Part shown: positions 16,667 to 40,655 of the stretch, piece after piece | How positions within the stretch are numbered: the first letter of the stretch is position 1 | How the letters are laid out: each line of letters begins with the position of its first letter | Sequence record: NC_054917.1 | From: Escherichia phage vB_EcoM_G50 | DNA length: 64,000 bases | Strand: one strand, 5' to 3' | The notes under the pieces: model-generated | Told to the model about the DNA's origin: nothing | Database searches by the model: none | Seen by the model: only the letters and a program-made list of their open reading frames with translations | Made by a program: the position numbers and the translations under genes

Positions 16667-17416
16667 ATGGCAAACATTATTCGTTGTAAATTACCAGATG
16701 GTGTTCATCGTTTTAAACCATTTACGGTAGAAGATTATCGAGATTTTTTGTTAGTTCGAAACGATATAGAACATCGGTCACCACAAGAACAAAAAGAAAT
16801 AATTGCTGATTTAATTGCTGATTATTTTGGAGACTATCCGAAGACTTGGCAACCATTTATATTTTTGCAGGTATTTGTAGGGTCAATAGGTAAAACTAAA
16901 GTACCGGTCACATTTGTATGTCCAAAATGTAAAAAAGAAAAGACAGTTCCATTTGAAATATATCAAAAAGAATTAAAGGAACCTGTTTTTGATGTAGCTA
17001 ATGTTAAAATTAAATTAAAGTTTCCTTCTGAGTTTTATGAAAATAAAGCAAAGATGATTACTGAAAATATTCATTCTGTTCAAGTAGATGAAATATGGTA
17101 TGATTGGAAGGAAATTAGTGAATCAAGTCAAATAGAACTTGTTGACGCCATCGAGATAGAAACATTAGAAAAAATTCTCGATGCAATGAATCCTATTAAT
17201 TTAACGCTACACATGTCATGCTGTGATAAGTATGTAAAAAAATACACTGATATAGTAGATGTGTTTAAGCTATTAGTTAACCCAGATGAGATATTTACTT
17301 TTTATCAAATTAATCACACACTCGTAAAAAGTAATTATAGTTTAAATTCAATAATGAAAATGATTCCTGCCGAGCGCGGATTCGTATTAAAACTGATTGA
17401 GAAGGATAAACAATAA
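16667..17416 (+). CDS. 51: Baseplate hub assembly catalyst gp51
   Basis: 249 aa; T4 length and position. Confidence 0.9.
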
Positions 17417-21941: not shown

Positions 21942-22906
21942 TGTATTCTTTAGAGGAATTTAATAATCAAGCAATAAACGCAGATTTCCAACGTAATAAT
22001 ATGTTTAGCTGCGTTTTTGCGACAACTCCATCAACTAAAAGCTCTTCGTTGATAAGTTCAATTAGCAACTTTTCTTATAATAACTTGGGCCTAAATTCAG
22101 ATTGGTTAGGATTAACTCAAGGCGATATTAATCAGGGAATTACCACGCTAATTACTGCTGGCACACAAAAACTGATAAGAAAATCAGGGGTTAGTAAATA
22201 TCTTATTGGTGCCATGAGTCAACGCACAGTTCAAAGTTTATTGGGCTCATTTACAGTTGGTACATATTTAATTGATTTCTTTAATATGGCATATAACTCA
22301 TCTGGATTGATGATATACTCTGTAAAAATGCCAGAGAATAGATTATCCTATGAAACTGACTGGAACTATAATTCTCCTAATATTCGTATAACTGGGAGAG
22401 AATTAGACCCTTTGGTTATTTCATTTAGAATGGATTCAGAAGCTTGTAACTATCGTGCAATGCAAGACTGGGTTAACGCTGTTCAAGACCCAGTAACTGG
22501 ATTGCGTGCTTTGCCGCAAGATGTCGAGGCAGATATTCAGGTTAATCTTCATGCTCGTAATGGATTACCTCATACTGCTGTGATGTTCACTGGATGCATT
22601 CCAGTGTCAGTGAGTGCTCCTGAGTTATCATATGATGGAGATAACCAAATAACTACATTTGATGTTACTTTTGCGTATAGAGTCATGCAGGCTGGGTCAG
22701 TTGATAGACAAGCTGCGCTTGAATGGCTTGAATCTGCTGCTATAAATGGCATTCAAAGCGTTCTCGGAAATAGTGGAGGTGTTACTGGACTATCTAATTC
22801 GCTTTCACGACTTAGTAGATTAGGAGGAACTGCGGGAAGCATTTCAAACATTAATACTATGACGGGAATTGTCAACTCGCAAAGTAAAATATTAGGAGCA
22901 ATATAA
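21941..22906 (+). CDS. 54: Baseplate tail tube initiator gp54
   Basis: 321-aa ORF (T4 320); followed by strong hairpin terminator. Confidence 0.92.
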   Translation: MYSLEEFNNQAINADFQRNNMFSCVFATTPSTKSSSLISSISNFSYNNLGLNSDWLGLTQGDINQGITTLITAGTQKLIRKSGVSKYLIGAMSQRTVQSLLGSFTVGTYLIDFFNMAYNSSGLMIYSVKMPENRLSYETDWNYNSPNIRITGRELDPLVISFRMDSEACNYRAMQDWVNAVQDPVTGLRALPQDVEADIQVNLHARNGLPHTAVMFTGCIPVSVSAPELSYDGDNQITTFDVTFAYRVMQAGSVDRQAALEWLESAAINGIQSVLGNSGGVTGLSNSLSRLSRLGGTAGSISNINTMTGIVNSQSKILGAI

Positions 22907-22910
22907 CAAT

Positions 22911-22936
22911 GGGGACCGAAAGGTCCCCATATTTTT
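22911..22936. terminator. Terminator between gene 54 and minus-strand early block
   Basis: GGGGACC-GAAA-GGTCCCC followed by ATATTTTTATTT. Confidence 0.6.
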
Positions 22937-23225
22937 ATTTACGGAATGAAATAAAAGCAGCAACTGAAGCAACTAAACTGTCTTCAATATAAACTTCAAT
23001 TTTTACCGGAGCTTCTGACTCAAATTTACCTGTTACTACACCTTGGAAAATACTTTCAGTCTGCTCTGGCTTTGAAAAATTTTCAGAAGGAAAAATTCCG
23101 AACTTTTTATCTGTTCCAAAAATTTTGATAAATTCATCGTAAACTGCTTCATTAAAAGCATTATCAGCAGGAATAACGCCTTCAACTACAAGTTCTTGAC
23201 CTAAAAAGCGTAAAGAAGATTTCAT
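22935..23225 (-). CDS. Hypothetical early protein downstream of the alt genes
   Basis: 96-aa ORF with consensus sigma70-type early promoter and SD gagga 7 nt upstream of ATG. Confidence 0.6.
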   Translation of the reverse strand: MKSSLRFLGQELVVEGVIPADNAFNEAVYDEFIKIFGTDKKFGIFPSENFSKPEQTESIFQGVVTGKFESEAPVKIEVYIEDSLVASVAAFISFRK

Positions 23226-23254
23226 TTTGTGTTCCTCATGTTATGTAAGTAAAA

Positions 23255-23288
23255 TTATTATAACACAACACGAGGGACTTGTAAACTA
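23255..23288 (-). promoter_or_regulatory. Early promoter (sigma70-type, extended -10)
   Basis: minus-strand GTTTACA, 17 nt, TGTTATAAT. Confidence 0.6.
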
Positions 23289-25343
23289 CATTTTGAACTT
23301 TTTAGACATTCCGTTGATGTTAACCAAAGAAGCCAAGATTTGAGAAACTTCGTTTTCCTCTTCTTTTGATTCTTCTACAAGGAATTGATTAAATCCAGCC
23401 ATTGGACGAACTTCACCAGTTTCCATCAGATGATCGCCATCATATACCGATTCTTCTAATTGTTCAGAAGGAGGAACGATTGTGCCTTCGATTAAATACT
23501 TGTTATAAGCAGTTTCTTTCATCATGTACGTGCTCACTTTATTAATCTTCAGCAAAATTCCACGCGGTAAAATAACTTCAGCTTCTGATGGAAATCCTGA
23601 TAAATGACCTGGAACGATAACTTTGATTCGCTCAGCTCCTTTTATTACCATACCTACGCTAGTTTCAGCATCTTCATTAGCATATGCGGAATGACTACCC
23701 GTATGCATTAAATCTTCAGCATCAACTGAACCTTCTCCTTCACCAGAAAATACTGCACTGGAATCATCTAGGGCCATATAGTTTTTACCATACTCACCGA
23801 AGATATTTGGTTTAAGCGATGTGGATACGAAGTTCTTGAAATAGAACATTTTATTTTCAATATTATGACGTAAAGTTTTAAAGGTAACTTCTTGTCCACG
23901 GTAAAGTGTAGTTCCTGGAGGAAGAACTGATCCTTTGGCAAAGGCAGAATCCATTGTCTCGATGTGTTTAATAGCTCGTTCCATGTATTCTTCACGGGTA
24001 GAATCTGGTTTACCCAAGAGGAACGAGTTCATTTCAACATATGAATCTGCACAATAATCTTCAATTACATCGGACTCAGCCTGAGTTAATCCTTTTGGGG
24101 GTACTTCAGTACTTGCATATTCATACGCTTGAGAAGCAGACTCATTAATCAATTTATAAATGCCATTCATGACAAATTGAATAATAGCTACCTTTTCATC
24201 TGGCGTGGCTTTAGAACCTTTAACTAAATCATTGACAATTTTCTTAATAACATCAAAGCTATTAGAAATATTAATGTCAGCGAGATCGCTTAAAATTTTA
24301 TCAGTTTTATAATCAAAAAATTCTTTATTCTTTAAATATTCCTGAGAACCTTGATATGTTATATCGCTCTGTAACTTGATAGATGGATCACGTAAACGTG
24401 CATGAGCCAATGCAATATGATTTCGGAAGCTTTCTAATTCATAATCGCTAGATTTAAAACGAGAAGCACTTCTCATACCACCGATAGCTCCTTTGCTGAA
24501 GTTTGAACCAACCTGAATAACGCCAGAGTTCATTGGTCCTTCTGCTTTATATACCGGAACTTTAGATTCAAACTCTTGATATTTCTTAGCAGCGAAGCTA
24601 TCACCCTGAAGTGAAGCATCGACAGTAGAATATTGAGCTTGTGCTGCTAATCGACGACTAATTTTAGTTTTCTGAATAACAGCTTGATCCGTACGCTTAT
24701 CATTTTCTAAAGCAATAGAAGCAGCAACAGCAACAGCTTTAGGAACAGCATTACCTGTTTTAACGTCTACATAAACATCACCAACCTTTGATTCAACCTT
24801 TGTGAATAACTCAGTTGAAATAGGAGGTACACCTGGAATGTCTTCTAAATTGGCATTTTTACGGTAAACCATAATATATGTGTACTTTTTATCGTAATCC
24901 CAGATTTCCTTTAAAAGAACATATCGACCTGCTCCTTTAGTACGCACTAAACGATCGGCAATAACTTGCATTTGACGAGCTGCACCGTTTGTTTTACTCT
25001 TTAATACGCGGAATAGGCATGCGTCAATTTTGTACTGTTTCATTGTCTGAAGAGCAGTATCAAAAACCGCATTAATGACACCAATTGGATTTCCACCTAA
25101 GTTTTTAAGTTTAACTAATGATAGTTTCTCATTAACGCCTATCATTACGATATGCATCATTTTATCGCCTGGCTTAACGTTTTTATTTGTATCACCGCCA
25201 GAGGTGTATGTACAAAATCTAAATCCAGGAAGCACACTTTCTTCACCGGCTTGAATAGCAAAAATTTGAGGTATTTTATGCTTAGGATTTAAGTTAACAA
25301 CCGGCGCCGAAGCGCCGTCAAATAATTCTGTAATAAGTTCCAT
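23286..25343 (-). CDS. Alt-like ADP-ribosyltransferase, second tandem paralog
   Basis: 685 aa; N-terminal third clearly homologous to adjacent Alt (MELITELFD...); C-terminal ART-like signature LYRGQ, FVSTSL, EAEVILPRG; starts 4 nt after alt stop. Confidence 0.8.
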   Translation of the reverse strand: MELITELFDGASAPVVNLNPKHKIPQIFAIQAGEESVLPGFRFCTYTSGGDTNKNVKPGDKMMHIVMIGVNEKLSLVKLKNLGGNPIGVINAVFDTALQTMKQYKIDACLFRVLKSKTNGAARQMQVIADRLVRTKGAGRYVLLKEIWDYDKKYTYIMVYRKNANLEDIPGVPPISTELFTKVESKVGDVYVDVKTGNAVPKAVAVAASIALENDKRTDQAVIQKTKISRRLAAQAQYSTVDASLQGDSFAAKKYQEFESKVPVYKAEGPMNSGVIQVGSNFSKGAIGGMRSASRFKSSDYELESFRNHIALAHARLRDPSIKLQSDITYQGSQEYLKNKEFFDYKTDKILSDLADINISNSFDVIKKIVNDLVKGSKATPDEKVAIIQFVMNGIYKLINESASQAYEYASTEVPPKGLTQAESDVIEDYCADSYVEMNSFLLGKPDSTREEYMERAIKHIETMDSAFAKGSVLPPGTTLYRGQEVTFKTLRHNIENKMFYFKNFVSTSLKPNIFGEYGKNYMALDDSSAVFSGEGEGSVDAEDLMHTGSHSAYANEDAETSVGMVIKGAERIKVIVPGHLSGFPSEAEVILPRGILLKINKVSTYMMKETAYNKYLIEGTIVPPSEQLEESVYDGDHLMETGEVRPMAGFNQFLVEESKEEENEVSQILASLVNINGMSKKFKM

Positions 25344-25346
25344 GAT

Positions 25347-27440
25347 TTATCCTTGAACGAACTTGTAAGGCATGTTTGTAATATCTATGCAAGACGCAAT
25401 AATTCCAAGAGATGATTCTACTTTCTGTTTAACATTTGATGAAACAAACGATGCAAAGTCAACTCTGTCTTCTATTTCAATATCATCTGTCATTGCAACT
25501 ACTTCACCGGTTTCCATTAGACGGTCACCGTCATAAATGACTGATTCGGTGAGCTCTTCTGTAGTCATAACTTCAGCTTGAATGAGTTTTGTATTATTAG
25601 ATGTTGTTCCGTCATTATTAGAAGCATCAGTTATTTTATTAACTTTGACCATCAATCCGCGTGGTAGAATAACTTCAGCTTCTGTTGCTATTCCGAGACT
25701 TCCTGGATATACAACATTAACTTTATGAGCTCCATCAATTGCCCATCCTATTTGAACTTTAACGTATTCAGGATTTTCTTTATACGCTCTTATTTCGTTT
25801 GGATTAATAGTTATTCCTTCTTCATTTTTATCAACTGTTAATTCATTACGAGCTTCTGGTTCTAAAAGACCAATACCAGCATGCGTAATTCCAAAACGTC
25901 CAAAAATGATAGGAGTTAAAGAAGTAGATACAAAATTTCTGAAATAGAACACTTTATTTTTAACTAGCGCTTCGTATATAGGAGCAGTCATACTTTGAGC
26001 ACGATAAACTGTAATGCCTTCTGGTATACGGTCACCATTTTCAAAAGCTGAATCTAAATTATTTATCGCAGATTCAATTTCTTTTTCACTCATTACATCA
26101 TATCGTTCTGGATTGTAGCGGCCTAAAAGAAGATTATTGATGTCAGTATATCCTGATCCACAATACTCTCTAATGCCGCGCTTTTGTGATGGAGTATATT
26201 TAGAACCATCACGGGCAATAGTAATATCAATCATTGGACCTGCACCAATTCCAGAAAAGCTATAAATCATTCGTTTGAGGAATTTAGTTTTTGCTGCGTT
26301 CCAGGAATTTTTAGTTATTTCTTCCCAGACTTCATCTGGCTGTCCTTTACGGGTTTTATTATGTTTATCAAGCCAATTATCTTTATATTCTTCAAAGAAT
26401 TGATTAACAGCTGCTGCGTATTTCTCTAAACATTTTATTGAAGTGGTTGGTTCATTTTTAATCGCATTAAGAATTACATCTTTAATTTTTTCAGAAACTT
26501 CATTAACCTCACTTTTTGAAAAGAATTTATAGTCATAGTGAAGTTCATCTGCGGTTCCTTCGGCAATGATTTTTGCTGCCTTAGTTTTAGAAGCTAATGA
26601 ATTAATTCCAAGCTTCATTTCTTCTGCTTCGGGAATTAAAGGAGCTGTAGCAGGTTTATTGAAATTAGCTGCGGTAGATTCATATTTCTGGAATAATTCA
26701 CTTTCAAATCTAGAAGATTCCAATGACTGACTTTGCGCAATTGCTCTACGGGAAATTTTAACTTTAACGATTACAGCTTGGTCAGAACGTTTATCGTTTT
26801 CTTGCGCAATAGATGCCGCAATTGCCTCATTTTTAGTTACTTGAGCTCCAGTATCTTTATTGATATAAACATCGCCGACTTTCGATTCAACTTTAGTAAA
26901 GAGCTCGGTACTAATTTCCGGAACTCCTGGAATGTCTTCTAGTGATACATTTTTGCGATGTATAAGAATATATGCATACTTTTTATCGTAATCCCAGAGT
27001 TCCTTAAGAAGGACGTATCTGCCACCTGAACGACTGCGGATAAGTCTATCAGCAATAACTTGAATTTGTCGAGCTTGACCAGCAGTTTTAGACTTAAGAA
27101 TACGAAGCATACAGGCATCAATTTTATACTGACGCATCGTTTGCATCGCAACAGTAAAAACTGAATTGATGTAATTAATTGGGCTTGGACCGAGACCTTT
27201 CAATTTAGCAATTGAACCTTTAGCAGTTAATGTAAAAGGAACAATGTGCATCATTTTATCGCCCATCTTTAGATCACGGTTAGTATCACCTCCAGATGTA
27301 TAGGTACATAAACGAAAGCCTGGTTGTTCAATTGCGTCATCAACATGAACTGAAAAAATTTGCGGTATTTTCTTCTTTGGATTTAAGTTTGTAATCGGAA
27401 GAGTAGTATCTTCGTCAAATAATTCTGTAATGAGTTCCAT
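25347..27440 (-). CDS. alt: Alt ADP-ribosyltransferase (packaged RNAP-modifying enzyme)
   Basis: 697 aa from second ATG (MELITELFDEDTTLPITNL... recognised as T4 Alt; first ATG at 27443 has too-short SD spacing); ART signature VYRAQ, FVSTSL, EAEVILPRG; TATAAATA late promoter upstream. Confidence 0.87.
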   Translation of the reverse strand: MELITELFDEDTTLPITNLNPKKKIPQIFSVHVDDAIEQPGFRLCTYTSGGDTNRDLKMGDKMMHIVPFTLTAKGSIAKLKGLGPSPINYINSVFTVAMQTMRQYKIDACMLRILKSKTAGQARQIQVIADRLIRSRSGGRYVLLKELWDYDKKYAYILIHRKNVSLEDIPGVPEISTELFTKVESKVGDVYINKDTGAQVTKNEAIAASIAQENDKRSDQAVIVKVKISRRAIAQSQSLESSRFESELFQKYESTAANFNKPATAPLIPEAEEMKLGINSLASKTKAAKIIAEGTADELHYDYKFFSKSEVNEVSEKIKDVILNAIKNEPTTSIKCLEKYAAAVNQFFEEYKDNWLDKHNKTRKGQPDEVWEEITKNSWNAAKTKFLKRMIYSFSGIGAGPMIDITIARDGSKYTPSQKRGIREYCGSGYTDINNLLLGRYNPERYDVMSEKEIESAINNLDSAFENGDRIPEGITVYRAQSMTAPIYEALVKNKVFYFRNFVSTSLTPIIFGRFGITHAGIGLLEPEARNELTVDKNEEGITINPNEIRAYKENPEYVKVQIGWAIDGAHKVNVVYPGSLGIATEAEVILPRGLMVKVNKITDASNNDGTTSNNTKLIQAEVMTTEELTESVIYDGDRLMETGEVVAMTDDIEIEDRVDFASFVSSNVKQKVESSLGIIASCIDITNMPYKFVQG

Positions 27441-27463
27441 CATATCCTCTCTAGTGTTTATTC

Positions 27464-27471
27464 TATTTATA
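27464..27471 (-). promoter_or_regulatory. Late promoter motif (alt)
   Basis: TATAAATA on minus strand about 20 bp upstream of alt start, consistent with Alt being a packaged late protein. Confidence 0.5.
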
Positions 27472-27476
27472 AAATT

Positions 27477-27494
27477 AAAGGCCCGAAGGCCTTT
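27477..27494 (-). terminator. Hairpin between ligase operon and alt
   Basis: AAAGGCC-CGAA-GGCCTTT perfect palindrome; UUCG loop on minus strand. Confidence 0.4.
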
Positions 27495-27681
27495 AATAAT
27501 CTAATGGTAAGAGAGTACGATATATTTCAAACTTTGGACCTTTTTCATAGGCATCAAATGTTTCTGTGAATTTATTATAAGCATATGCATCTATAAATTC
27601 AATCATAATTTGTGATACAGAAGTAGAAACATCTCCACCTTCTTTTTGAGCAACGACAATTGTTTCTAAGTAAGCTTTCAT
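27493..27681 (-). CDS. Hypothetical protein between ligase and alt
   Basis: 62-aa ORF, overlaps gene 30 stop by 4 nt. Confidence 0.5.
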   Translation of the reverse strand: MKAYLETIVVAQKEGGDVSTSVSQIMIEFIDAYAYNKFTETFDAYEKGPKFEIYRTLLPLDY

Positions 27682-29141
27682 AGACCAGTTACCTCATGAA
27701 AATCACCAAATACATCCTCGAATGTATTAGCTTTAGTTTTATCTTCACGTAAACGAATCGCAATCGGAAGAAATAATTTAACGTAATCAGTGCGGCCATC
27801 AGATTTTAACCAACCGTTGCATTCGCACTCTAGAATTTTTCCAATATAATAATTTTGGTTTTCCATAATGCGAGTACGGTCAAGTTCATGCGATTTTACA
27901 CCGGCTTTATCTTTTAAGCCTGAACCTGCATTTACTTTAATTTTTCCACACTCTGATTCAAGAATAAATCCACCAGCTTTAGTAGGGTCTTTACGGTGAG
28001 GATAAATTCCTACAATTTTTAAATCAACATCAATTACTTCTTTAAATTTATAGAGATTTTTTGAACGAGCATTTTCCCACAATCCGTCGGTATTTTTGAG
28101 AATAATACCTTCAAAACCTTGGTCAATATATTTTTTATAAATTACCTTAGCTTCATCTAGGTTATTTACTACTTGGTTTTCAATTAAAATTACTTTATCA
28201 TATCCTGATGTCATTTGTTCTAGTTTAGAAAAACGTACATCATATTTTAAACGAAACGCCGGAAGACCGTATATTTCTACCAACGGGACATAATCCCAGA
28301 CCTGAAACTTCATGCATTTGGCTTCTTTTTCGGAAATGGTTCCTTTTAAGGATTTATTAGCGATTCCATTAGAAGTAGTACGAGATTCCGCTACTTCGGC
28401 GAATTCTTTAGCTTTACTAATTTCAGGATAAGCATCAAAAAGAAAATCTAGGCCTTCTGGTTCCTTTTTAACTTGCTCATGGTATACCAATTCGCCATCA
28501 ATTAACACACCTTCTGGATGAATCTGGCGGGCTTCAGCAGTCATTTTGATTAATTCTTCCTTAAGAAGATCTAATCCTAGATATTCATTACCAGCTCGTG
28601 ATAAAAGACGAACATCATCTAATTCATCACCTCGAACTTCAGCAAAACACCGAGATCCATCTGCTTTTAACTGTGCAAAAGCTGGAAACTTGATATTCTT
28701 ACTAATGCCTTTTTCATCATAAGAACTTGCCAGCATTTGAGGTTGTTCAGGAATTAAACCTGGCCAAACTTTGTTTGCAATAGATACTGAAGCACCGCAT
28801 TCAAGGTCTCGCATCATCACTCGACGCAAAACTTCAACATCATCCTTTTTACCATCGGTGATATATCCAGTCAATTCCTCAATTGCAGCATTTCCAGTCA
28901 ATTTCCGAGTAGCTAACGTGAATTCAATGAAGTCAAGCATATCGGTAATAGTCAGCATTCCAAAACTCTGGGTAGCAATACCAGGTTTAGGCCATTTCTT
29001 TATATAATACTGTAACCCACGAGAATAAGTCAGACGATATACCCGTTTAAGCAATTCATTATCTTTATTCTTTTCAAGAATTGCTTGCTTCTGCTTAGTT
29101 GATCCAATAGATGCTATTTCATTCAGAATTTTAAGAATCAT
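27678..29141 (-). CDS. 30: ATP-dependent DNA ligase gp30
   Basis: 487 aa, T4 length; adenylation lysine motif region (AQLKADGSR) and recognised N-terminus MILKILNEIASIGS. Confidence 0.95.
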   Translation of the reverse strand: MILKILNEIASIGSTKQKQAILEKNKDNELLKRVYRLTYSRGLQYYIKKWPKPGIATQSFGMLTITDMLDFIEFTLATRKLTGNAAIEELTGYITDGKKDDVEVLRRVMMRDLECGASVSIANKVWPGLIPEQPQMLASSYDEKGISKNIKFPAFAQLKADGSRCFAEVRGDELDDVRLLSRAGNEYLGLDLLKEELIKMTAEARQIHPEGVLIDGELVYHEQVKKEPEGLDFLFDAYPEISKAKEFAEVAESRTTSNGIANKSLKGTISEKEAKCMKFQVWDYVPLVEIYGLPAFRLKYDVRFSKLEQMTSGYDKVILIENQVVNNLDEAKVIYKKYIDQGFEGIILKNTDGLWENARSKNLYKFKEVIDVDLKIVGIYPHRKDPTKAGGFILESECGKIKVNAGSGLKDKAGVKSHELDRTRIMENQNYYIGKILECECNGWLKSDGRTDYVKLFLPIAIRLREDKTKANTFEDVFGDFHEVTGL

Positions 29142-29407
29142 TGTTCATCCTTCAGAGTTTGATTTACAGCTCTATTATAAATCAATTCATCATTAAGCTC
29201 AGGCAAAGACTTATGATATGTAGTTCTAACTTTATTTCCTTGCATCCAGTGCTTGACATAAATGAAACCTTGCTCTACACATTTTTTAAAAATTCGTTCG
29301 TCTTTTTGAGCTCGGAATTCTGGATTGCATCTAAAAAATTGATTTACGTGACCGTAATCACGTGTAGTATTACCTTCATTTTCATAAATAGTGTGAACGA
29401 CAAACAT
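29138..29407 (-). CDS. 30.1: Hypothetical protein (T4 30.1 position)
   Basis: 89-aa ORF overlapping ligase start; positional. Confidence 0.55.
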   Translation of the reverse strand: MFVVHTIYENEGNTTRDYGHVNQFFRCNPEFRAQKDERIFKKCVEQGFIYVKHWMQGNKVRTTYHKSLPELNDELIYNRAVNQTLKDEQ

Positions 29408-30270
29408 TAGAATGCTCCTTGGAAAATATTATCACCACTAGTAAATCTATTAAAATACCCTGCATCGCCAGGCTTGGTATAACTCCACGTATGGAATGGA
29501 TTCATATGATATGGGTGTGTATAATATGGATTATATGGATGTGTATAATATGGATTATACGGATTAAATCCAGGAGTTCTCCAGGTAGTGTTCCAACGAA
29601 AAGAATCGTTTTTAACCATCTTCTCAATTACATCTTTTATAGCTTTTTCACTATCAAAACTTTCTTTATTTTCCTTTGGTGAAAAAAGCTTATTTTCTAC
29701 ATCATTCCATGTATAAACTCGCTGAGCGGTTTTTGGAATATTGTCACGCTCTCCTCGCGCCATCCAATAAACAGGAACATTTAATATTTCACTCGCATGA
29801 TCGCAATGGTGAGCGAGATCGTCAATGTAACAAATTACGTTATATTTCTCTTTTGCCTTTTTGAACAACTCTTCTTTTGAAGAATCATGACCACACATCA
29901 TTACTTCTGAGAAGGCACCAGGAAAAAGAGCATTCAAATTAAATTGACGATTCAACAGAGCGTCAATAGAATCACCCAATGCTGTAACAGCTACAAAATT
30001 ATAATCTTCTTTTAATTTGTTAATTACACACAGGGCATCTTTATACGGAGACAAATAACGAATAAAATCTGAACGATTGTATTTTTCAATTAACTTGACG
30101 CCAAGTTCTTCATCACAATTAAAGAGTTTACCTGGAGAAATAAATTTCTCATCTTGGATCATTTTTAAAATATGTTCTAACGGAAGATTATATTTCTGAG
30201 CAAAATAAGGAAGGCCTGATTGCCAGCTTAAACATACTCCATCAATATCAGTTAAAATAGTAGGCTTCAT
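29407..30270 (-). CDS. 30.2: HAD-like hydrolase candidate with Tyr/Pro-rich repeat tail (T4 30.2 position)
   Basis: 287 aa; N-terminal ILTDIDGV resembles HAD motif I (DxDGx), later YIDD; C-terminal NPYYTHPY tandem repeat. Confidence 0.65.
   Translation of the reverse strand: MKPTILTDIDGVCLSWQSGLPYFAQKYNLPLEHILKMIQDEKFISPGKLFNCDEELGVKLIEKYNRSDFIRYLSPYKDALCVINKLKEDYNFVAVTALGDSIDALLNRQFNLNALFPGAFSEVMMCGHDSSKEELFKKAKEKYNVICYIDDLAHHCDHASEILNVPVYWMARGERDNIPKTAQRVYTWNDVENKLFSPKENKESFDSEKAIKDVIEKMVKNDSFRWNTTWRTPGFNPYNPYYTHPYNPYYTHPYHMNPFHTWSYTKPGDAGYFNRFTSGDNIFQGAF
29512..29559. repeat. 24-bp tandem repeat (2 copies, 2 mismatches) at 3' end of 30.2
   Basis: tgg(g/a)tgtgtataatatggattata x2; encodes NPYYTHPY repeat. 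Confidence 0.85.
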
Positions 30271-30731
30271 AGAGAGTCTCTTAATAGATTTAACACATCA
30301 ATAAATTCAGCTTCGGTTAGTATTGTATCATCTTTTGTTAGACCACTAGCCATGCTGTGCTTCAAAACTTTTCCTTTCGAGGCTTGTAATGCATCGCGAA
30401 AGCCCTTGTTTTGGAACGCTGCTTCAAAATATGCATTTGTGTATAATTCTTTCCATGCTTCGGAATATCTTGAAAACGGAGTTCCAAGCCAGAACAACGT
30501 GCCACGGTCCTGAGCTCTTGCATAAGACCTTCCAGCTTGTTGGGCGGCAAGCCCGGATAACCCAAATATACGACGCTGTTGTTCAACATTTTTCACCTTG
30601 CATCCTTGGAGGAATCCTTCGAGACCTCCAAATTGGATACCATCCATAACAAAAGGCCATTGGGCGAAATTACTTAATGCACATGATGGCCATCTAAAAT
30701 TGCTTCTAATCTCTAACTCAGACATTTTCAA
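30267..30731 (-). CDS. 30.3: NADAR (YbiA/DUF1768)-like protein (T4 30.3 position)
   Basis: 154 aa; pattern ALSNF...DGIQFGGLEGFLQGCK matches the conserved core of NADAR/YbiA-family proteins as I recall them. Confidence 0.65.
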   Translation of the reverse strand: MKMSELEIRSNFRWPSCALSNFAQWPFVMDGIQFGGLEGFLQGCKVKNVEQQRRIFGLSGLAAQQAGRSYARAQDRGTLFWLGTPFSRYSEAWKELYTNAYFEAAFQNKGFRDALQASKGKVLKHSMASGLTKDDTILTEAEFIDVLNLLRDSL

Positions 30732-30924
30732 TACTTATAATTTCAACATCAGCCCAATGACCATAGCAAGGAAGACGAAATTCAACTGGCCAGTTAGGGT
30801 CCTTTTCTAATATAATAGACTGAACTTGTGGCTCTTCATGTTCATCGGTATACGGACCTTTATACGTTACTTTATATGTGACCTTAATGTACTGAATTCC
30901 AAAAATCTTATTAATTATATTCAT
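30718..30924 (-). CDS. Hypothetical protein (30.x region)
   Basis: 68-aa ORF in tight operon array. Confidence 0.5.
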   Translation of the reverse strand: MNIINKIFGIQYIKVTYKVTYKGPYTDEHEEPQVQSIILEKDPNWPVEFRLPCYGHWADVEIISIENV

Positions 30925-31118
30925 ATTAATTCCTTTAATCCATAGATAGGAGATAATTCATCACCCATACGAAGGTCTTCATTTCCATCTACCCAGGAAA
31001 CAATATAAGCCTCTTTTATTTGAATACCACTCCATTTAAATGGAGGTAGAACCTTAGAAATTAATCCAGGTATACCAACTCCCTTTAATTCAACAGTTTG
31101 ACCTAAAAAGAATTTCAT
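30921..31118 (-). CDS. Hypothetical protein (30.x region)
   Basis: 65-aa ORF, stop/start overlaps with neighbours. Confidence 0.5.
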   Translation of the reverse strand: MKFFLGQTVELKGVGIPGLISKVLPPFKWSGIQIKEAYIVSWVDGNEDLRMGDELSPIYGLKELI

Positions 31119-31405
31119 TAAAACCTCATCTGAAAACCGTGCGATTTAACATTACCGCCGCCAATATCAGAAATATTAATTTCGCGCGCAATTGAAGGGT
31201 CAATGTCAATTTCACGATTGAGTTTAGTAATAGCTAGAGTATCACGCCCATTTACAGTACGGAACTCTAAAGGGCAGACTACATTAACGTAGTTTTTAAT
31301 TGATTCACTGGTAGGTTGCAAATGAGCAGGAAGGTCTTTAGGTGCCTTAGAGAAAACCACTTCACAGAAATTTTTGCGGGTATCAAAATAAGTAGTCATA
31401 AACAT
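31118..31405 (-). CDS. Hypothetical protein (30.x region)
   Basis: 95-aa ORF preceded by SD gagga. Confidence 0.55.
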   Translation of the reverse strand: MFMTTYFDTRKNFCEVVFSKAPKDLPAHLQPTSESIKNYVNVVCPLEFRTVNGRDTLAITKLNREIDIDPSIAREINISDIGGGNVKSHGFQMRF

Positions 31406-31421
31406 AGTATTTTCCTCAGTA

Positions 31422-31445
31422 AGGGGCCGAAGCCCCTCATTTTAT
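31422..31445 (+). terminator. Plus-strand-oriented hairpin plus T-run inside minus-strand gene block
   Basis: GGGGCC-GAAG-CCCC followed by TCATTTTATTTT on plus strand. Confidence 0.4.
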
Positions 31446-31446
31446 T

Positions 31447-31812
31447 TTAAATATCAAATTCGTTAAGAACTACATCAAAGATCGCTTCAAGATGCTCAGG
31501 TTTAGCTCTGTTACTCAGAATATGACGAATCCAAGTTTTAACCAGAAGCTTACGATTGACGCCATTCCAGCAAGGATGAGTACCTAAATCGCGTTGACGG
31601 AAATCATCATCTAATGCGATTTTAAAAGAAGAACCTTCTTTCGTGATTGAAACCGTGATGCCATTTTCAAATCGCATATAAACGTAGTTAGGAGTCATAT
31701 ACTGTTCAATTTCGCATACTGATCCATTTTGATGTTTCCAAAGGCAGATAGTATCAATAGAACCTGCAATACCATTAGAAACATATTTACGTTCAAAGTT
31801 GATGTAGTTCAT
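31447..31812 (-). CDS. Hypothetical protein (30.x region)
   Basis: 121-aa ORF. Confidence 0.6.
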   Translation of the reverse strand: MNYINFERKYVSNGIAGSIDTICLWKHQNGSVCEIEQYMTPNYVYMRFENGITVSITKEGSSFKIALDDDFRQRDLGTHPCWNGVNRKLLVKTWIRHILSNRAKPEHLEAIFDVVLNEFDI

Positions 31813-31880
31813 TTTTATTCTCCGAGATGTTTAATTGCGGTACAGGTATATAATATCATATCCTGTACCAAAGTAAACAA

Positions 31881-32213
31881 TTATTTTACTACTTTCCAAT
31901 GTTGCATGTCAAGTTTACCAACTTTTTTCATCTTCTCAATTAAGCGTTCGGCACGTTGGCGGGCTGTAACATAATACCATTCACCCAATTCATTTTGTTC
32001 AATTTTTCCAACGATTACTGTATTCAATTCATAAATCCAACCAGTAAAGAAATTATGAACTTGAATTGTAAAGGTGAAATCTGTTCCCATACCTTCTGTT
32101 GTTTCTACTTCAATAATATCACCTTCAACTGCCATTAAGAACCACATAGTTTCATCATATTTACCATTGAAGCATTTAGTTTTAACTGTAGCGTTCAGAT
32201 TAATCGTTTTCAT
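31881..32213 (-). CDS. Hypothetical protein (30.x region)
   Basis: 110-aa ORF with early promoter-like sequence upstream. Confidence 0.6.
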   Translation of the reverse strand: MKTINLNATVKTKCFNGKYDETMWFLMAVEGDIIEVETTEGMGTDFTFTIQVHNFFTGWIYELNTVIVGKIEQNELGEWYYVTARQRAERLIEKMKKVGKLDMQHWKVVK

Positions 32214-32239
32214 TTTATTCTCCTTTGTTTGTGTAAGAT

Positions 32240-32273
32240 AATACTATCACAAAGGAACTATACTGTAAACAAC
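32240..32273 (-). promoter_or_regulatory. Early promoter-like sequence
   Basis: minus-strand GTTTACA, 17 nt, TGATAGTAT. Confidence 0.45.
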
Positions 32274-32323
32274 TTTATGCAATCTTTGGAAAATAAAAAA
32301 GGACTCCCGAAGGAGTCCTCAAC

Positions 32324-32500
32324 TTATGCTTTCTGCTTACCAAAACGAGAAGCATCATCTCGAAGAACCGCACGTGCTCGGCGCATGATCTTCTCAACAG
32401 TTTGATTGATACGAGAGTTCGACCCACGCTTGTAACCAGCGCGTTTAGAATCACCAACTTTCTTTTCAACTGCTTTCTTTGCTTTAGCTTGTTTTGCCAT
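32324..32500 (-). CDS. Small highly basic protein (possible nucleic-acid binding)
   Basis: 58 aa from ATG 32500 (MAKQAKAKKAVEKK...); track ORF extends upstream through a hairpin so the shorter start is preferred; K/R about 30 percent. Confidence 0.5.
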   Translation of the reverse strand: MAKQAKAKKAVEKKVGDSKRAGYKRGSNSRINQTVEKIMRRARAVLRDDASRFGKQKA

Positions 32501-32694
32501 TATAAATTCTCTTTTAAATGAAAATGCAGGACTTATTGGCATTGCCTGCGAAAGCCCTCAAGGGGTACTTAGGTTTTGAATATTTACCGACAGGATAACC
32601 ATAAACCTCGTCAACATTCAAGAGGTACACCGTAAAACAAAGTTCGACGGCTCCTCGTTTTAACTTCACACTAAGGCAGTGACTCTCCAATAAA

Positions 32695-32943
32695 TTACTT
32701 CAGTGTTACCACAAAGTGACGAACTGCTTTTCGTGCAGCAGAAGCCAGAGGCTTAGCATACTTAAGTTCATCTTTTTCCTGAAGCTCAGCGGCTAATGCA
32801 GTTTGAGCAGGATTCAGATGTTTGAAATAACGCAGGATTTCAAGAGCTTCGGCTTCAACATCAATAGATGCGCCATAGTTTTCGTGACCATTATTCCATG
32901 CGTTTCGTTGCAGTTCAAGAGCGTGTTGTAATTGTTTAATCAT
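32695..32943 (-). CDS. rIII: rIII lysis inhibition accessory protein
   Basis: 82 aa, T4 length, position upstream of 30.x and downstream of gene 31. Confidence 0.82.
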   Translation of the reverse strand: MIKQLQHALELQRNAWNNGHENYGASIDVEAEALEILRYFKHLNPAQTALAAELQEKDELKYAKPLASAARKAVRHFVVTLK

Positions 32944-33082
32944 TTAAAAATTCTCGTTAGAGATTAAAACTCGGTAGTCACGTTCTTCTGAATTTCATCT
33001 TCTTTCGACAGATCTCTCAGTTGTAGACTACCACATAGAATTGTTCGGTTAACTTATTATTCCGACACCCAATTCATATTAT

Positions 33083-33090
33083 TATTTATA
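33083..33090 (-). promoter_or_regulatory. Late promoter motif (rIII)
   Basis: TATAAATA on minus strand in 31-rIII intergenic region. Confidence 0.4.
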
Positions 33091-33426
33091 TCACTTATAA
33101 AGACACGGAATAGCTTTATAGTGACAGGTTACGAATTTTTGTTTAATTTCTTTTGGCTGCTTAAGACCCAGAGCTACAAAAGGATGAGGAACGTTTCGAA
33201 TTTGACCAACTGGAAGAGAAGTCAAATCACCAACTTCGCAGAAACCTTCAGGAACATCAGGACCAACAGAGTGAACTACACACAGTTCAGGAACTTCACC
33301 TTGGACACGTTTACCAATAATAAGTCCTGATTCTGTAACTTCTTCATCACCGGCTTGCGCAGGTTCAGAAACTAAAATAACATATTCACCGACAGCACGA
33401 ATTGGTAGCTGTTGTACTTCAGACAT
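33091..33426 (-). CDS. 31: Co-chaperonin gp31 (GroES-like, capsid folding)
   Basis: 111 aa; recognised T4 gp31 sequence and length. Confidence 0.93.
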
Positions 33427-33482
33427 CGTTTTTCCTTTTTGTTAACAGATGAATTAATAATAACAAATAATTCTTAAAGCAT

Positions 33483-33791
33483 TTATTTACCAATAAATTG
33501 AAGCAAATGCTCAACTTTCATACCATTAACGGAAATCAATTTGTCAATAGAAAAACCTCGCCATGCACCAAGCTCAACATCAAATACTGGAATCATATCA
33601 GTAGATTCTTTCCGAGTAGATTCAGTCAATTTACCGGTTTGCATAGTTGGCATAAAGTCAGCATCACGAGTGCCTTTCATAGTACGAATAGTACCATCAG
33701 ACTTTTCAAAAACCACGTTTGAAATACCCATGGACAATTTAGTTTTCAAAATTTCACGAATTGCTACTTTCTGTTCAGTTGTCAGTTTCAT
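33483..33791 (-). CDS. 31.1: Hypothetical protein (T4 31.1 position)
   Basis: 102-aa ORF. Confidence 0.6.
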   Translation of the reverse strand: MKLTTEQKVAIREILKTKLSMGISNVVFEKSDGTIRTMKGTRDADFMPTMQTGKLTESTRKESTDMIPVFDVELGAWRGFSIDKLISVNGMKVEHLLQFIGK

Positions 33792-34028
33792 TTATTTACC
33801 TATTACAGTTTTAATATGAGTTGTTCCACGTTCTTTAAGAGTGGAAAGCAATTTTTGGCATTTTTCTAAATCAGATTTCCAACTATACGGCCTATCAATA
33901 CAAACCCATTCTGACTTATAATACTGTTTCCATTTAGAGAAAAAATATTTCTTATACTCTACAGCAAATGAAATGTTCTCGTTAGAATAAGAACTAATTG
34001 CTGTGAGCTGTACCAAACGAAATTTCAT
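33792..34028 (-). CDS. 31.2: Hypothetical protein (T4 31.2 position)
   Basis: 78-aa ORF abutting cd. Confidence 0.55.
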   Translation of the reverse strand: MKFRLVQLTAISSYSNENISFAVEYKKYFFSKWKQYYKSEWVCIDRPYSWKSDLEKCQKLLSTLKERGTTHIKTVIGK

Positions 34029-34609
34029 TATTCACCACAGAATTCGTTGATATTTTCCCAATTTAACTTATTTAAGTTTTTCTTAGGAACATTAAACACT
34101 TCAATACCCGCATTTCGCAGAATATCATCCCAGCCAGGTTTATTTTTATCGTATGTTTCGCAATAAACCAGCTTTTTAATTCCAGATTGAGCTATCGCTT
34201 TTGCACAATCTGGGCAAGGAGAAAGTGTTACATACATAGTAGCACCTTCAATTGAAGAACCATTTCGCGCAGCAAACAAAATCGCATTTAGTTCAGCATG
34301 AATTTCATTTTTAGACGACCACTCAGAGTGAGCACTACGATATTCTTTCGCCAAGACAAAACGATCAGTTGAACCAAATGATACACATTCAGGCTTATGA
34401 CCTTGAATGATAGTATGTTTAGGCTTATTTAGCAACCAACCTTGCTCAACAGCATAATCGCAGCAATTCACACCCCCGGCAGGTGAACCATTATATCCGG
34501 TAGAAATAATACGTCCATTCTTTTCAATTACCGCTCCTACCTTCCAGGAGCAACATTTTGATTCTTGTGATACTAAATATGCAATTTGAAGTACTGTACT
34601 CGCTTTCAT
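34028..34609 (-). CDS. cd: dCMP deaminase
   Basis: 193 aa; zinc-binding deaminase motifs HAELNA and PCPDCAKAI. Confidence 0.94.
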   Translation of the reverse strand: MKASTVLQIAYLVSQESKCCSWKVGAVIEKNGRIISTGYNGSPAGGVNCCDYAVEQGWLLNKPKHTIIQGHKPECVSFGSTDRFVLAKEYRSAHSEWSSKNEIHAELNAILFAARNGSSIEGATMYVTLSPCPDCAKAIAQSGIKKLVYCETYDKNKPGWDDILRNAGIEVFNVPKKNLNKLNWENINEFCGE

Positions 34610-34944
34610 TTCATAATCACCAGATAAGCAGATTTAGCAGTTTCAACACGATAAATTTCGTGACGAAGTTTAGTTATACTTTTAATAACAGAACTAATTA
34701 TATTCTGCCCATCTTTAAAGCGGTTTTTCTTATCAATAAAAATTGCACCAACCATCTTTTTGTGAAGCTCAACAGGATACTTCGTCACAATAATAGCATC
34801 ATACACAGAAGGATGAATACTGTTCACCAGAGTATCGTTCATTAAAGTTATTCTAATGAACTGTGCTGTTTCAGAATCAAGCGCTCTATGATCGCCAGTA
34901 TCATTTTCAAGACAATTATCAATTATATCAGTTAAATTCATCAT
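34606..34944 (-). CDS. Hypothetical protein (cd.1 position)
   Basis: 112-aa ORF, overlap with cd start. Confidence 0.6.
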   Translation of the reverse strand: MMNLTDIIDNCLENDTGDHRALDSETAQFIRITLMNDTLVNSIHPSVYDAIIVTKYPVELHKKMVGAIFIDKKNRFKDGQNIISSVIKSITKLRHEIYRVETAKSAYLVIMK

Positions 34945-35177
34945 AGTACGCCATACACCCTTTGTGCTTCAACTAATCCATCAAAATCCAGTTTAAGATG
35001 TGTTATTTGGTCACCATCACCTGGATTCACAATTACTAATACTGAACGAGGAGTTTCGGTAATGACACGAACCGATGTTTCAGGAAATCGTTCAGAAACC
35101 TTATTTACCAATTCCTGAGCAAATAGTTTAACTTTTTCTTGGAATTCTTTAGTAGTAATTGGTTTTTCACTTAGCAT
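34941..35177 (-). CDS. Hypothetical protein (cd.2 position)
   Basis: 78-aa ORF. Confidence 0.55.
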   Translation of the reverse strand: MLSEKPITTKEFQEKVKLFAQELVNKVSERFPETSVRVITETPRSVLVIVNPGDGDQITHLKLDFDGLVEAQRVYGVL

Positions 35178-35698
35178 GTTGATCCCAGCTCCTTACTTTC
35201 AACGTTTTTAACTAATTTGACAGAAACTAATTCGGCATCTTGGGTAATCATTACCGGGCCTTCTTCATACTCTTCAAGATATTCTAGAGCTTTCTTTTTA
35301 GCTTCTTCCTTCGTATCAGTTTGAGCATAGATATAAAACATACAACCAGTAATACCTACTACTTTCCACTTAATTTCTTTATCAGTTTTAATTTCAAATT
35401 TACTGATAGAGTCATCTTTTTGAACTTCTTCGAAAAAATAATATTCTGACATATAAGTAATTGAAAATAGCGGGCTTTCTTTATAAGATTCGCCCATTAC
35501 ATCAACAGCTTTATACCAGCAATCGTCAATTTCGCGTTTAATGCTAATAACATTTTTCGCAGGATCTATTTTTACTTTAAATGAATTTTCCCCAATAAAC
35601 TGAGCAATTCGTTTATTAGCCCCACAAGTTTCATTAAAAATATCTTTATATCCAGCTTTAAAGCGATAAACCTTATCTTCTTCAAACCATTCGCTCAT
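35171..35698 (-). CDS. Hypothetical protein (cd.3 position)
   Basis: 175-aa ORF with early promoter-like sequence upstream. Confidence 0.6.
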   Translation of the reverse strand: MSEWFEEDKVYRFKAGYKDIFNETCGANKRIAQFIGENSFKVKIDPAKNVISIKREIDDCWYKAVDVMGESYKESPLFSITYMSEYYFFEEVQKDDSISKFEIKTDKEIKWKVVGITGCMFYIYAQTDTKEEAKKKALEYLEEYEEGPVMITQDAELVSVKLVKNVESKELGSTC

Positions 35699-35726
35699 TT
35701 CAATTTCCTCATTTGTTTTGGTAGAG

Positions 35727-35760
35727 CTATAATATCACAACTCTACCGTAAAGTAAACTA
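35727..35760 (-). promoter_or_regulatory. Early promoter-like sequence
   Basis: minus-strand GTTTAC, 18 nt, TGATATTAT. Confidence 0.4.
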
Positions 35761-36036: not shown

Positions 36037-36038
36037 AT

Positions 36039-36239
36039 TTACCTCACATAATTTTCTTCAAGCCAATTAATAACATCCAAAGCGTTATCAAAAATTGAAC
36101 CATCTACTTTGTCTTCTGTTTCATAATCAAGAACATCTAAGCCTACTCTTCCGTCAACAATAGGCCATAAACAAAATAGATATTTCTTTTCTTTTTCAAT
36201 CTTATCGCAAAGACGATAAATCTTTTCTATGTTATTCAT
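36039..36239 (-). CDS. Hypothetical protein (cd.5 position)
   Basis: 66-aa ORF. Confidence 0.5.
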   Translation of the reverse strand: MNNIEKIYRLCDKIEKEKKYLFCLWPIVDGRVGLDVLDYETEDKVDGSIFDNALDVINWLEENYVR

Positions 36240-36429: not shown

Positions 36430-37632
<1,203 letters not shown>

Positions 37633-38159: not shown

Positions 38160-38509
38160 TTAGAAAGGTCCTGGATGTCTTCTGCGAACTTGTTGAAGGA
38201 GTTGTTGATTTGTTTTTCAACCAATCCTGGCTTATGAGCCACCACATCCGCCTTCTTTGCGTCTTTGCGCAGTTTTTCATTTTCACGCTCAATAGCAGCA
38301 ATTGCCTCACGATTTTTATTATTCATCGCATCAATATAATTATACTGAATTCGCAAATTATCTAATGCTAAAGCGTTTTCATTGGCCGTTTTTGTAATTT
38401 CTACAACAGACGTTTCTAATCTTTCAATTTTACTTTTTAAAATTAAAGAAGTTCCGCCCAATGCAATTACAATTAATAGCAAGCCTGCTGTCGTATTACT
38501 TAATTGCAT
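38156..38509 (-). CDS. pseT.3: Inner-membrane spanin (i-spanin)
   Basis: 117 aa; N-terminal TM helix then charged coiled-coil-like periplasmic domain. Confidence 0.68.
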   Translation of the reverse strand: MQLSNTTAGLLLIVIALGGTSLILKSKIERLETSVVEITKTANENALALDNLRIQYNYIDAMNNKNREAIAAIERENEKLRKDAKKADVVAHKPGLVEKQINNSFNKFAEDIQDLSK

Positions 38510-39003
38510 AAAGTTTTAATAACCTCTATAATATCGTCTTGAGAAAGACCGTTAATTAAAATATGATGTTCAGCAGGAGATTTAGAAATTTTAAAGCATG
38601 CCTCAACATCTTCTGCCATATCCGATGCGCTACGATTTGGATTACTAATTCCAAGACGATGTTTTCCCGTTAAAGGATTAACGATGATATAGCATTTACA
38701 GTTGTTAATATGAACATTAGGTTGAGTCTGATTAATGAACACATCACAATCATATTTCGCAAGCTGATTTTCTAAAAAGACTTTCATCTCCTCAACTGCA
38801 TCAGGAAGCATATCACGAGCTTGCTCAAGACGACGATTTCGATATTCTTTAATGGTCGTTTTCCGCTTGACTTGCTTAGCTAAATCTTTCTTAAGATCGG
38901 TGATATATCCAACTCGACGATTTCCTTTAAATACAGAAATACCATCTGTAGTATCACCGTATGCTTCAACGACCATTTCAGTAGTAATAAGCTGTAAATC
39001 CAT
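38500..39003 (-). CDS. alc: Alc, inhibitor of host transcription on cytosine-containing DNA
   Basis: 167 aa from second ATG; T4 length and position next to rnlA; early promoter upstream. Confidence 0.8.
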   Translation of the reverse strand: MDLQLITTEMVVEAYGDTTDGISVFKGNRRVGYITDLKKDLAKQVKRKTTIKEYRNRRLEQARDMLPDAVEEMKVFLENQLAKYDCDVFINQTQPNVHINNCKCYIIVNPLTGKHRLGISNPNRSASDMAEDVEACFKISKSPAEHHILINGLSQDDIIEVIKTLCN

Positions 39004-39032
39004 CATAAAGTCCTCATGTTATGTCAGTAAGA

Positions 39033-39066
39033 CTACTGTAACACAACACGAGGGACTTGTAAACAG
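39033..39066 (-). promoter_or_regulatory. Early promoter upstream of alc, near-identical copy of the 23255-23288 element
   Basis: minus-strand GTTTACA, identical 17-nt spacer AGTCCCTCGTGTTGTGT, then TACAGT. Confidence 0.5.

Positions 39067-39067: not shown

Positions 39068-40655
<1,588 letters not shown>

Follow-up and report, generated by a model that had tools for sequence, protein, structure and literature searches.

Why do two genes of a T4-like phage, alt.-3 and alc, carry almost the same promoter and leader, and what does this shared cassette do for them? The question is raised by a 64,000-nucleotide stretch of the genome of Escherichia phage vB_EcoM_G50 (NC_054917.1), here called the window, in which one copy of the cassette (copy A) stands upstream of alt.-3, a non-essential gene whose function is not known (PMC11618068), and the other (copy B) upstream of alc, whose product inhibits host transcription. 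The genes at both cassettes all lie on the minus strand, and the two segments with their flanks match approximately 500 Tequatrovirus genomes at 95-99% identity, which assigns the window to the T4 genus, i.e., to the T4-like phages of Escherichia, Shigella, and Yersinia. The explanation favored here, to which a probability of about 0.6 can be given, is that the cassette is an early promoter lying inside a hairpin that gates translation according to the origin of the RNA, and that it was copied once, in the distant past, from alc to alt.-3.

The two cassettes are copies of one another. From the -35 box to the Shine-Dalgarno (SD) sequence, copy A (23233-23286) and copy B (39011-39064) share 49 of 54 bases, including an exact run of 26 bases, GTTTACAAGTCCCTCGTGTTGTGTTA, which occurs in the window only at 23261-23286 and 39039-39064 on the minus strand; a search of all 64 kb with up to three mismatches gave no further match, and shuffled sequences lead one to expect 0. 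This bears out the initial annotation, which had described a common -35 element, an identical spacer, and a near-identical leader, and had placed both segments correctly within 2 bases. Identity is sharply bounded, on the 5' side at the G preceding TTTACA and on the 3' side after GAGGA, and the five differing bases fall in the -10 box (two; TATAAT vs TACAGT) and among the first 10 bases of the leader (three). Copy A has the promoter TTTACA/17 nt/TATAAT (11 of 12 consensus positions) and copy B TTTACA-17-TACAGT (9 of 12), both with the TG element; GAGGA lies 7 nt from the ATG at either copy, and the sequence upstream is rich in A+T (79% over 24 nt at copy A; 62% proximally and 95% in the next 19 nt at copy B).

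The earlier suggestion of a copied cassette, as opposed to mere consensus, is upheld by a comparison of eight early-promoter cassettes with proximal open reading frames (ORFs) in the window. Outside the hexamers, A and B agree at 37 of 40 positions, and the other pairs share 14.7 ± 3.8 positions on average and 24 at most. Chance or consensus likeness is ruled out by these pair counts together with the shuffles of the exact run. The accompanying claim that the spacers of other early promoters are unrelated holds on the pairwise counts but needs trimming: two elements, the TG preceding the -10 box and a CTTAC-like motif that directly follows the box, are found at other early promoters too and are thus generic consensus. 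Partial gene duplication extending into the N-termini (ELVVEG vs EMVVEA) was also ruled out, as neither BLASTP nor profile-profile comparison detected kinship between the Alt.-3 and Alc proteins.

Missing from the initial annotation was the complementarity of the promoter spacer to the leader and SD. Positions 23278-23263 pair with 23231-23246 in copy A, and 39058-39041 with 39008-39024 in copy B, forming stems of 15-17 pairs, two of them G-U in each, that span the -10 box. The -10 box and the start site (predicted at both cassettes from promoter geometry alone, and at copy A approximately 7 nt past the -10 box) fall within the loop, and the SD GAGGA falls within the 3' arm. Compared with shuffles, z-scores fall between -3.0 and -5.8; the energies predicted for folding are -19 to -29 kcal/mol, and -19 to -26 kcal/mol for the hairpin with the -10 box in its loop. 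The outer pairs AAGUCC/GGACUU are found only in the alc context, i.e., at copy B. Rfam covariance models run over window positions 22000-40500 (E ≤ 1) placed no family at either cassette. A RegB site at the T4-type SD was likewise rejected: RegB requires a GGAG motif, and by reading of the sequence GAGGA lacks one.

Whether this hairpin matters to the phage can be judged from its fate at alc in other lineages. The regions from alt.-3 to alc of RB69 (Mosigvirus), VR5 and QL01 (Dhakavirus), Melville (Gelderlandvirus), Marfa (Marfavirus), and EnC15 (Karamvirus) were compared, with 40 alc and 24 alt.-3 loci added from IMG/VR, and covariation was assessed on 30 distinct sequences upstream of alc. 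The spacer pairs with the SD region in 22-23 of the 30, through at least nine different stems, and in three more it pairs with the leader just 5' of the SD. Examples from different lineages are TCTCCATTTGGTT/AACCAAATGGAGA, TCTCCGTTT/AAACGGAGA, CCTCGTTTGTT/AACAAACGAGG, TCCTCATCAG/CTGATGAGGA, ACCTCTCATTTT/AAAATGAGAGGT, and TCCTCATTTCGTT/AACGAAATGAGGA. Because the stem shifts its register between lineages, MAFFT combined with RNAalifold recovered few pairs (seven across 17 alc leaders, all SD-proximal), and duplex energies of self and cross combinations, together with an anchored pair count, were used in their place. An alc spacer forms a duplex of -17.7 kcal/mol on average with its own leader and of -9.3 kcal/mol with the leaders of other lineages; for 21 of the 30 sequences the own leader is the best partner and no foreign leader equals it. 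When the register is fixed by five anchor nucleotides, the next eight positions are paired at 6.0 of 8 with the own leader vs 3.5 of 8 across lineages (17 distinct arms). The arms of the alc hairpin therefore covary, and the structure is thus under selection at this gene. Within the T4 genus, substitutions in the 5' arm are pair-preserving transitions, with the sole exception of a C-to-A change beside a bulged C. A single metagenome scan returned eight loci; its search pattern had a fixed 3' arm and so gives no variation for that arm. On these comparisons, the cassette arrangement is ancestral at alc, with the hairpin kept through compensatory changes in most of the T4-like lineages sampled.

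How could such a hairpin act? The spacer of a strong sigma-70-type early promoter would serve as the 5' arm, carrying the anti-SD, and the leader with its SD would serve as the 3' arm. RNA started further upstream would contain both arms, and its ribosome-binding site would be locked in the helix. RNA started at the embedded promoter would always lack the 5' arm, because this arm is the promoter spacer and lies upstream of the start, and would be translatable. At alc, the blocked RNA would be middle-mode transcripts coming through nrdB, denA, and rnlA; at alt.-3, it would be middle or late transcripts coming through the alt genes. Synthesis of Alc and Alt.-3 would in this way be limited to the period in which the early promoters fire, each gene being insulated from its later-expressed upstream neighbor. 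From modeled RNA folding we infer that the hairpin acts on translation: in read-through RNA with 160 nt of upstream sequence, the SD has a predicted probability of 0.00 of being unpaired, both at the two copies and at alc in five other genera, and in short RNA from the predicted start this value rises to 0.45-0.70 for six of seven alc leaders.

Both sites have sources of transcription that would run into the cassette from upstream. In front of alc, and on its strand, the middle promoters PI-TevIII, PnrdB, PnrdA, and Ptd have been mapped (PMC2988021, Table 1), and the terminator scan of the window found no terminator-like site between nrdB and alc. Late read-through into alt.-3 probably stems from the late-promoter consensus in front of the first alt gene (Table 1); Alt is annotated as a virion-packaged protein. 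According to time-resolved omics of T4, alt and denA belong to the class of middle RNA and late protein and rnlA to that of early RNA and late protein, and alc, alt.-3, and 30.8 are early at both levels (PMC9697503, supplement). The published temporal classes change at both cassettes, a discontinuity that is compatible with a strong early promoter plus a block on the translation of read-through RNA, although it is no proof of the block.

Several observations weigh against translational gating. Even in the short RNA the SD is predicted to be mostly paired at T4-type alt.-3 (probability unpaired 0.12) and at Marfa alc (0.02), and a strong early promoter alone also accounts for the omics classes. 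Among the alc lineages, the RB69-like and two more have a mini-hairpin spacer in place of the anti-SD hairpin, which implies that alc can do without the gate. The sense strand folds with almost the same energy as the antisense strand (-18.2 vs -17.6 kcal/mol), so that a structure at the RNA level is not told apart from an inverted repeat at the DNA level. Lastly, hairpins around the -10 box of three other early promoters (48163, 35757, and 31877) leave the SD free; thus, promoter-embedded stems must serve something besides SD masking. Attenuation or 3'-end protection, as put forward for promoter-early stem-loop (PeSL) cassettes, is the obvious candidate for this other role, and it may coexist with gating. 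The arms flanking the -10 box at these three promoters (minus strand, positions being those of the -35 starts) include GGTAGAG...CTCTACC and GGTACAGG...CCTGTACC, with z-scores of -3.9 to -5.3.

Such stems are also central to a second explanation, namely that the hairpin is a terminator or attenuator of the PeSL type that halts or reduces transcription arriving from rnlA or alt, or that it protects the 3' ends of the upstream mRNAs, its overlap with the SD being incidental. The PeSL stem-loops of RB49 and phi1 are located between -35 and -10 or overlap the -10 box, and one PeSL stem-loop matched the rrnB T1 terminator in the degree to which it lowered lacZ expression downstream (PMC2839356). 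Six of the eight window early promoters have a significant hairpin around -10, three of them without contact to the SD, and at both cassettes the RNA passes from one temporal class to another. However, no U-run follows the hairpin at either copy (the tails are ACACAAAA and UAUGAUGG) and the terminator scan of the window picked up neither cassette; an intrinsic terminator, which combines a GC-rich hairpin with a U-run, is rejected on this ground. Moreover, a pure terminator gives no reason why the 3' arm at alc should cover the SD in 22-23 of 30 lineages while the stem itself changes. Termination or end protection in place of gating is thus rather unlikely, and the two can coexist.

The near-equality of the strands invites a third explanation, in which the inverted repeat acts in DNA, as a cruciform or as a site to which a dimeric factor binds on either side of the -10 box, and modulates or shuts off early promoters. 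The stems are mostly Watson-Crick, inverted repeats around -10 are common among the early promoters of the window, and the shutoff of T4 early promoters is described as incompletely understood (PMC3014915). Yet the arm sequences differ wholly between promoters and genera while their complementarity is kept, which argues against a sequence-specific protein site; the two G-U pairs of the T4-type stem become A-C mismatches on the other strand; and the consistent inclusion of the SD is left unexplained. Of the readings weighed here, an element acting in DNA is the least probable.

Gating through a spacer-borne anti-SD would not be confined to the two copies. The early promoter of gene 30.8 is the third cassette of like architecture (Table 1), although its sequence is unrelated to that of the alc cassette and it is not a copy. 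Its SD has a predicted probability of being unpaired of 0.04 in read-through RNA vs 0.93 in RNA from the predicted start, and the anti-SD is also present in RB69, VR5, and QL01. It is tempting to propose a conserved and apparently unreported class of early-promoter gates in T4-like phages, in which an anti-SD placed in the spacer right behind the -35 box would tie immediate-early translation (of alc, of 30.8, and, in the T4 genus, of alt.-3) to the promoter used; this generalization is tentative, with odds somewhat short of even.

When and in which direction was the cassette copied? When 50,697 phage records were searched by blastn with the 68-nt cassette, 498 of them gave matches, at 995 places in all, i.e., approximately two per genome. 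The best match per record lay between rnlA and alc in all rows listed, all second copies inspected by sequence lay upstream of alt.-3, and no third genomic context was seen in the records and sequences inspected. Matches to the 16-mer core among non-T4 sequences of IMG/VR were unrelated sequences. An actively mobile cassette with more insertion sites is ruled out by the presence of approximately two places per genome in approximately 498 genomes. T4 itself has both copies, which differ at one of 54 bases, and the copies are identical (54/54) in some related genomes. Within the T4 genus they bear different private variants, and no derived variant is common to both copies of one genome, which indicates independent evolution since one copying event and does not support ongoing concerted evolution of A and B.

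The direction follows from the genera outside Tequatrovirus. In the representatives of Mosigvirus, Dhakavirus, Gelderlandvirus, Marfavirus, and Karamvirus, alt.-3 has a different spacer without anti-SD, which forms a mini-hairpin (CCACA-AGGA-TGTGG is one example). At alt.-3, the long anti-SD hairpin is thus limited to the T4 genus and derived there, with alc as the donor. In agreement with this direction, the outer AAGUCC/GGACUU pairs are confined to alc, and in one alt.-3 variant the arm has become GTTCC and pairs with its own GGAAC. As to the mechanism, we infer a single ectopic patch conversion in the Tequatrovirus ancestor, by which the alt.-3 promoter would have received the alc cassette, both copies diverging slowly from then on. 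Melville, RB69, and VR5 show that AACATGAGGAAC was the end of the alt.-3 leader even before this event, so the patch would have been bounded by pre-existing identity, with GTTTACA (approximately 7 nt) on the left and AACATGAGGA (approximately 10 nt) on the right. A comparable case is VR5: its alc leader (17330-17400 of the VR5 region compared) agrees with its alt.-3 leader (760-830) at every base of a 32-nt stretch, ACCTTACACAAACATGAGGAGAACATTATGAA, which other Dhakavirus alc leaders lack. In VR5, an independent and more recent conversion has taken place between the same two loci, with endpoints other than those of the T4 event. On this evidence, the cassettes act as swappable regulatory modules, which is the core of the PeSL idea.

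Two further observations concern the alternatives to the long hairpin. The mini-hairpin, found at alt.-3 outside the T4 genus and at alc of the RB69-like lineages, itself covaries (CCACA/TGTGG, GCAC/GTGC, TCCAC/GTGGA, and CATCC/GGATG), and its loop, A(A/T)GGA(A/T), is conserved despite the changes in the stem. Its ACAAGGAUGU may resemble the CsrA SELEX consensus; a central GGA is also present in the early-promoter spacers at window positions 52192, 48891, and 31877, and it may be a promoter-level consensus element instead. Separately, in an IMG/VR lineage (three loci) whose Alc is approximately 56% identical to that of the window, the early promoter is replaced by a terminator-like GC-rich hairpin, AAAGGGGTGTACAAGCCCCTT, and the leader that follows has no -35/-10 pair, alc having lost its own early promoter.

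The initial annotation had further suggested that recombination at the two copies could exchange or delete the block from alt to pseT, and a broader form of this explanation treats A and B as PeSL-type recombination substrates that exchange, delete, or excise the block. As direct repeats, they are separated by 15.7 kb in the window and by 13.2 kb in T4, and they enclose gene 30 (DNA ligase), gene 31 (GroES-like co-chaperonin), rIII, cd, and pseT. Established T4 genetics has genes 30 and 31 as essential, so that a phage could not survive the loss of the block. Given headful packaging and the short terminal redundancy of T4, the reciprocal product, a duplication of 13-16 kb, would probably not fit into the head along with a complete genome. 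On the other hand, 54 bp of near identity in direct orientation is close to the length on which recombination in T4 can act (Singer et al., 1982, cited in PMC2839356), the duplication itself shows that these cassettes have recombined ectopically, and the leader identity in VR5 represents a second, independent exchange. Nevertheless, the copies occupy the same two loci wherever inspected, at approximately two per genome; the absence of derived variants common to both copies gives no sign of continuing exchange; and gene order in the block is the same in the six non-Tequatrovirus genomes compared, whose cassettes are not duplicated as in the T4 genus.

Insertions and deletions relative to T4 point the same way, as none of the three has both ends at the cassettes. 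The first concerns the second alt paralog, whose body (window 23306-24995) is absent from T4. The T4 deletion ends in an AT-rich region 12-20 nt upstream of the -35 box of copy A, which could be taken in favor of recombination there, and its junction is an imperfect 8-nt direct repeat, TAAAGAGT/TAAAAAGT, i.e., microhomology within alt sequence; no indel lies at copy B. This second paralog is intact in the window (685 aa), T4 keeping just the alt.-1 and alt.-2 remnants, and the number of alt paralogs is one in RB69, two in VR5, and three in QL01. The second indel is a 175-aa ORF (35171-35698) directly 3' of the hairpin-bearing early promoter 35757. This ORF is inserted between cd.2 and cd.3, where VR5 and QL01 have one of approximately 184 aa, and it resembles the promoter-adjacent ORF indels described for PeSLs. 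The third is a 100-aa ORF (37334-37636) between pseT and pseT.1 that has no T4 counterpart; T4 positions 134901-134907 abut at this point. Clustering of indels at such promoters in general receives mild support from these cases, and the A/B pair specifically receives none. With the same two loci throughout, synteny kept, and no indel running from A to B, nothing supports the proposed exchange or deletion, and a role of the copies as recombination substrates for the block is very unlikely.

Table 1. Positions in the window of the two cassettes, the genes around them, and related elements.
Feature	Position	Strand	Remarks
Copy A -35, GTTTACA	23280..23286	-	its G doubles as third base of the TAG stop codon ending the upstream alt paralog
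Copy A 17-nt spacer, AGTCCCTCGTGTTGTGT	23263..23279	-	hairpin 5' arm, anti-SD CCCTC
Copy A -10, TATAAT	23257..23262	-	in hairpin loop
Copy A 3' arm, ACATAACATGAGGAAC	23231..23246	-	contains SD GAGGA (23233-23237)
alt.-3, 96 aa	22935..23225	-	gene downstream of copy A
Second alt paralog, full-length	23286..25343	-	adjoins copy A upstream; read-through RNA would hold the whole copy A hairpin
Copy B -35, GTTTACA	39058..39064	-	
Copy B 17-nt spacer, same as in copy A	39041..39057	-	hairpin 5' arm
Copy B -10, TACAGT	39035..39040	-	TATAGT in T4
Copy B 3' arm, ACATAACATGAGGACTT	39008..39024	-	contains SD GAGGA (39011-39015)
alc, host-transcription inhibitor	38500..39006	-	T4 annotation starts at the second ATG, window 39003
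rnlA	39068..40228	-	upstream of copy B; read-through RNA would hold the whole copy B hairpin
Gene 30.8 early promoter, third cassette of like architecture	32220..32269	-	spacer UUCCUUUGU pairs with ACAAAGGAG (SD, AAGGAG)
Late-promoter consensus, TATAAATA	27464..27471	-	approximately 20 nt 5' of first alt gene
Terminator-like hairpin, bidirectional	22909..22930	.	between gene 54 and alt.-3; closes alt/alt.-3 transcription unit

Two neighboring features may be added. The terminator-like hairpin beyond alt.-3 is a perfect 9-bp GC-rich palindrome, ATGGGGACC-GAAA-GGTCCCCAT, with T-runs on both strands. At 32285-32368 (minus strand), a weak Rfam match to the Rhizobiales small RNA Atu_C8 (31.4 bits, with the gathering score at 50; E = 0.007) coincides in part with a terminator-like hairpin (32299-32320) and probably reflects a chance likeness between stem-loops.

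If translation is gated as proposed, the early genes of T4, including the host-transcription shutoff gene alc, would be subject to an extra layer of temporal control, and the early-only behavior of Alc and Alt.-3 directly downstream of genes with late-accumulating products would find an explanation. Some PeSL-type stem-loops, so far read solely as terminators and recombination linkers, would acquire one purpose, and genome annotators would be warned that a gene of this kind may be covered by RNA reads and yet not be translated. Should the class of gates proposed above be real, the transplant from alc to alt.-3 would make promoter plus gate a portable module. The transplant in itself provides a dated and direction-resolved example of a regulatory cassette moving between phage genes. 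The interest of the locus lies mainly in these two aspects, the conserved early-promoter gate and the direction-resolved transplant, and no new recombination system is indicated. The literature searched, which left most of the older work on T4 outside, contained no earlier description of the repeat or of a hairpin at alc or alt.-3; a 2010 review of post-transcriptional control in T4 names the cases of e, soc, 49, I-TevI, and homing endonucleases alone (PMC3014915).

How does the cassette compare with known systems? The likeness to PeSL cassettes noted in the initial annotation holds up, as every descriptive component is present at both copies: the early promoter is of the sigma-70 type, the sequence before it is AT-rich, a stem-loop overlaps the -10 box, and the 3' end holds an SD with ATG (PMC2839356; PMC4122927). 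Copy A and the TATAGT form of T4 conform to the PST/T4 promoter consensus, TTTACW-N17-TAYWAT, from which TACAGT of copy B in the window departs at one position. Both systems also exchange sequence by recombination within common promoter and SD motifs. The stem-loops of PeSLs are read as terminators or attenuators, and the 2010 PeSL paper does not mention SD sequestration (PMC2839356), whereas here the 3' arm is the SD itself, conserved by covariation. Furthermore, PeSLs flank small variable ORFs in hyperplastic regions, and it is these ORFs that they excise, as mini-circles of 0.4-1.4 kb present in about 1 in 100,000 virions; A and B, by contrast, lie 13-16 kb apart around a conserved and partly essential block with no module exchange seen.

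The copying itself resembles ectopic gene conversion between dispersed short repeats, which likewise involves a patch of approximately 44-54 nt, non-allelic sites, and endpoints at microhomology. It differs in that a regulatory cassette alone was moved, with no coding sequence, and in that the copies then evolved independently instead of in concert.

The closest parallel for the proposed function is offered by the T4 genes e, soc, 49, and I-TevI, which have hairpins that sequester the ribosome-binding site together with an internal promoter (McPheeters et al., 1986; PMC3014915). There, as predicted here, the SD is locked in long transcripts, and RNA from the internal promoter lacks the 5' arm and is translated, so that translation is timed whether or not transcription reads through from upstream. 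However, those genes embed the late promoter TATAAATA, which occurs in neither of the two cassettes, and block read-through from early and middle transcription; at alc and alt.-3, an early sigma-70 promoter is embedded and middle or late read-through would be blocked, so that the direction of gating would be reversed. Also unlike e, soc, 49, and I-TevI, the 5' arm at alc and alt.-3 is the spacer of the promoter itself.

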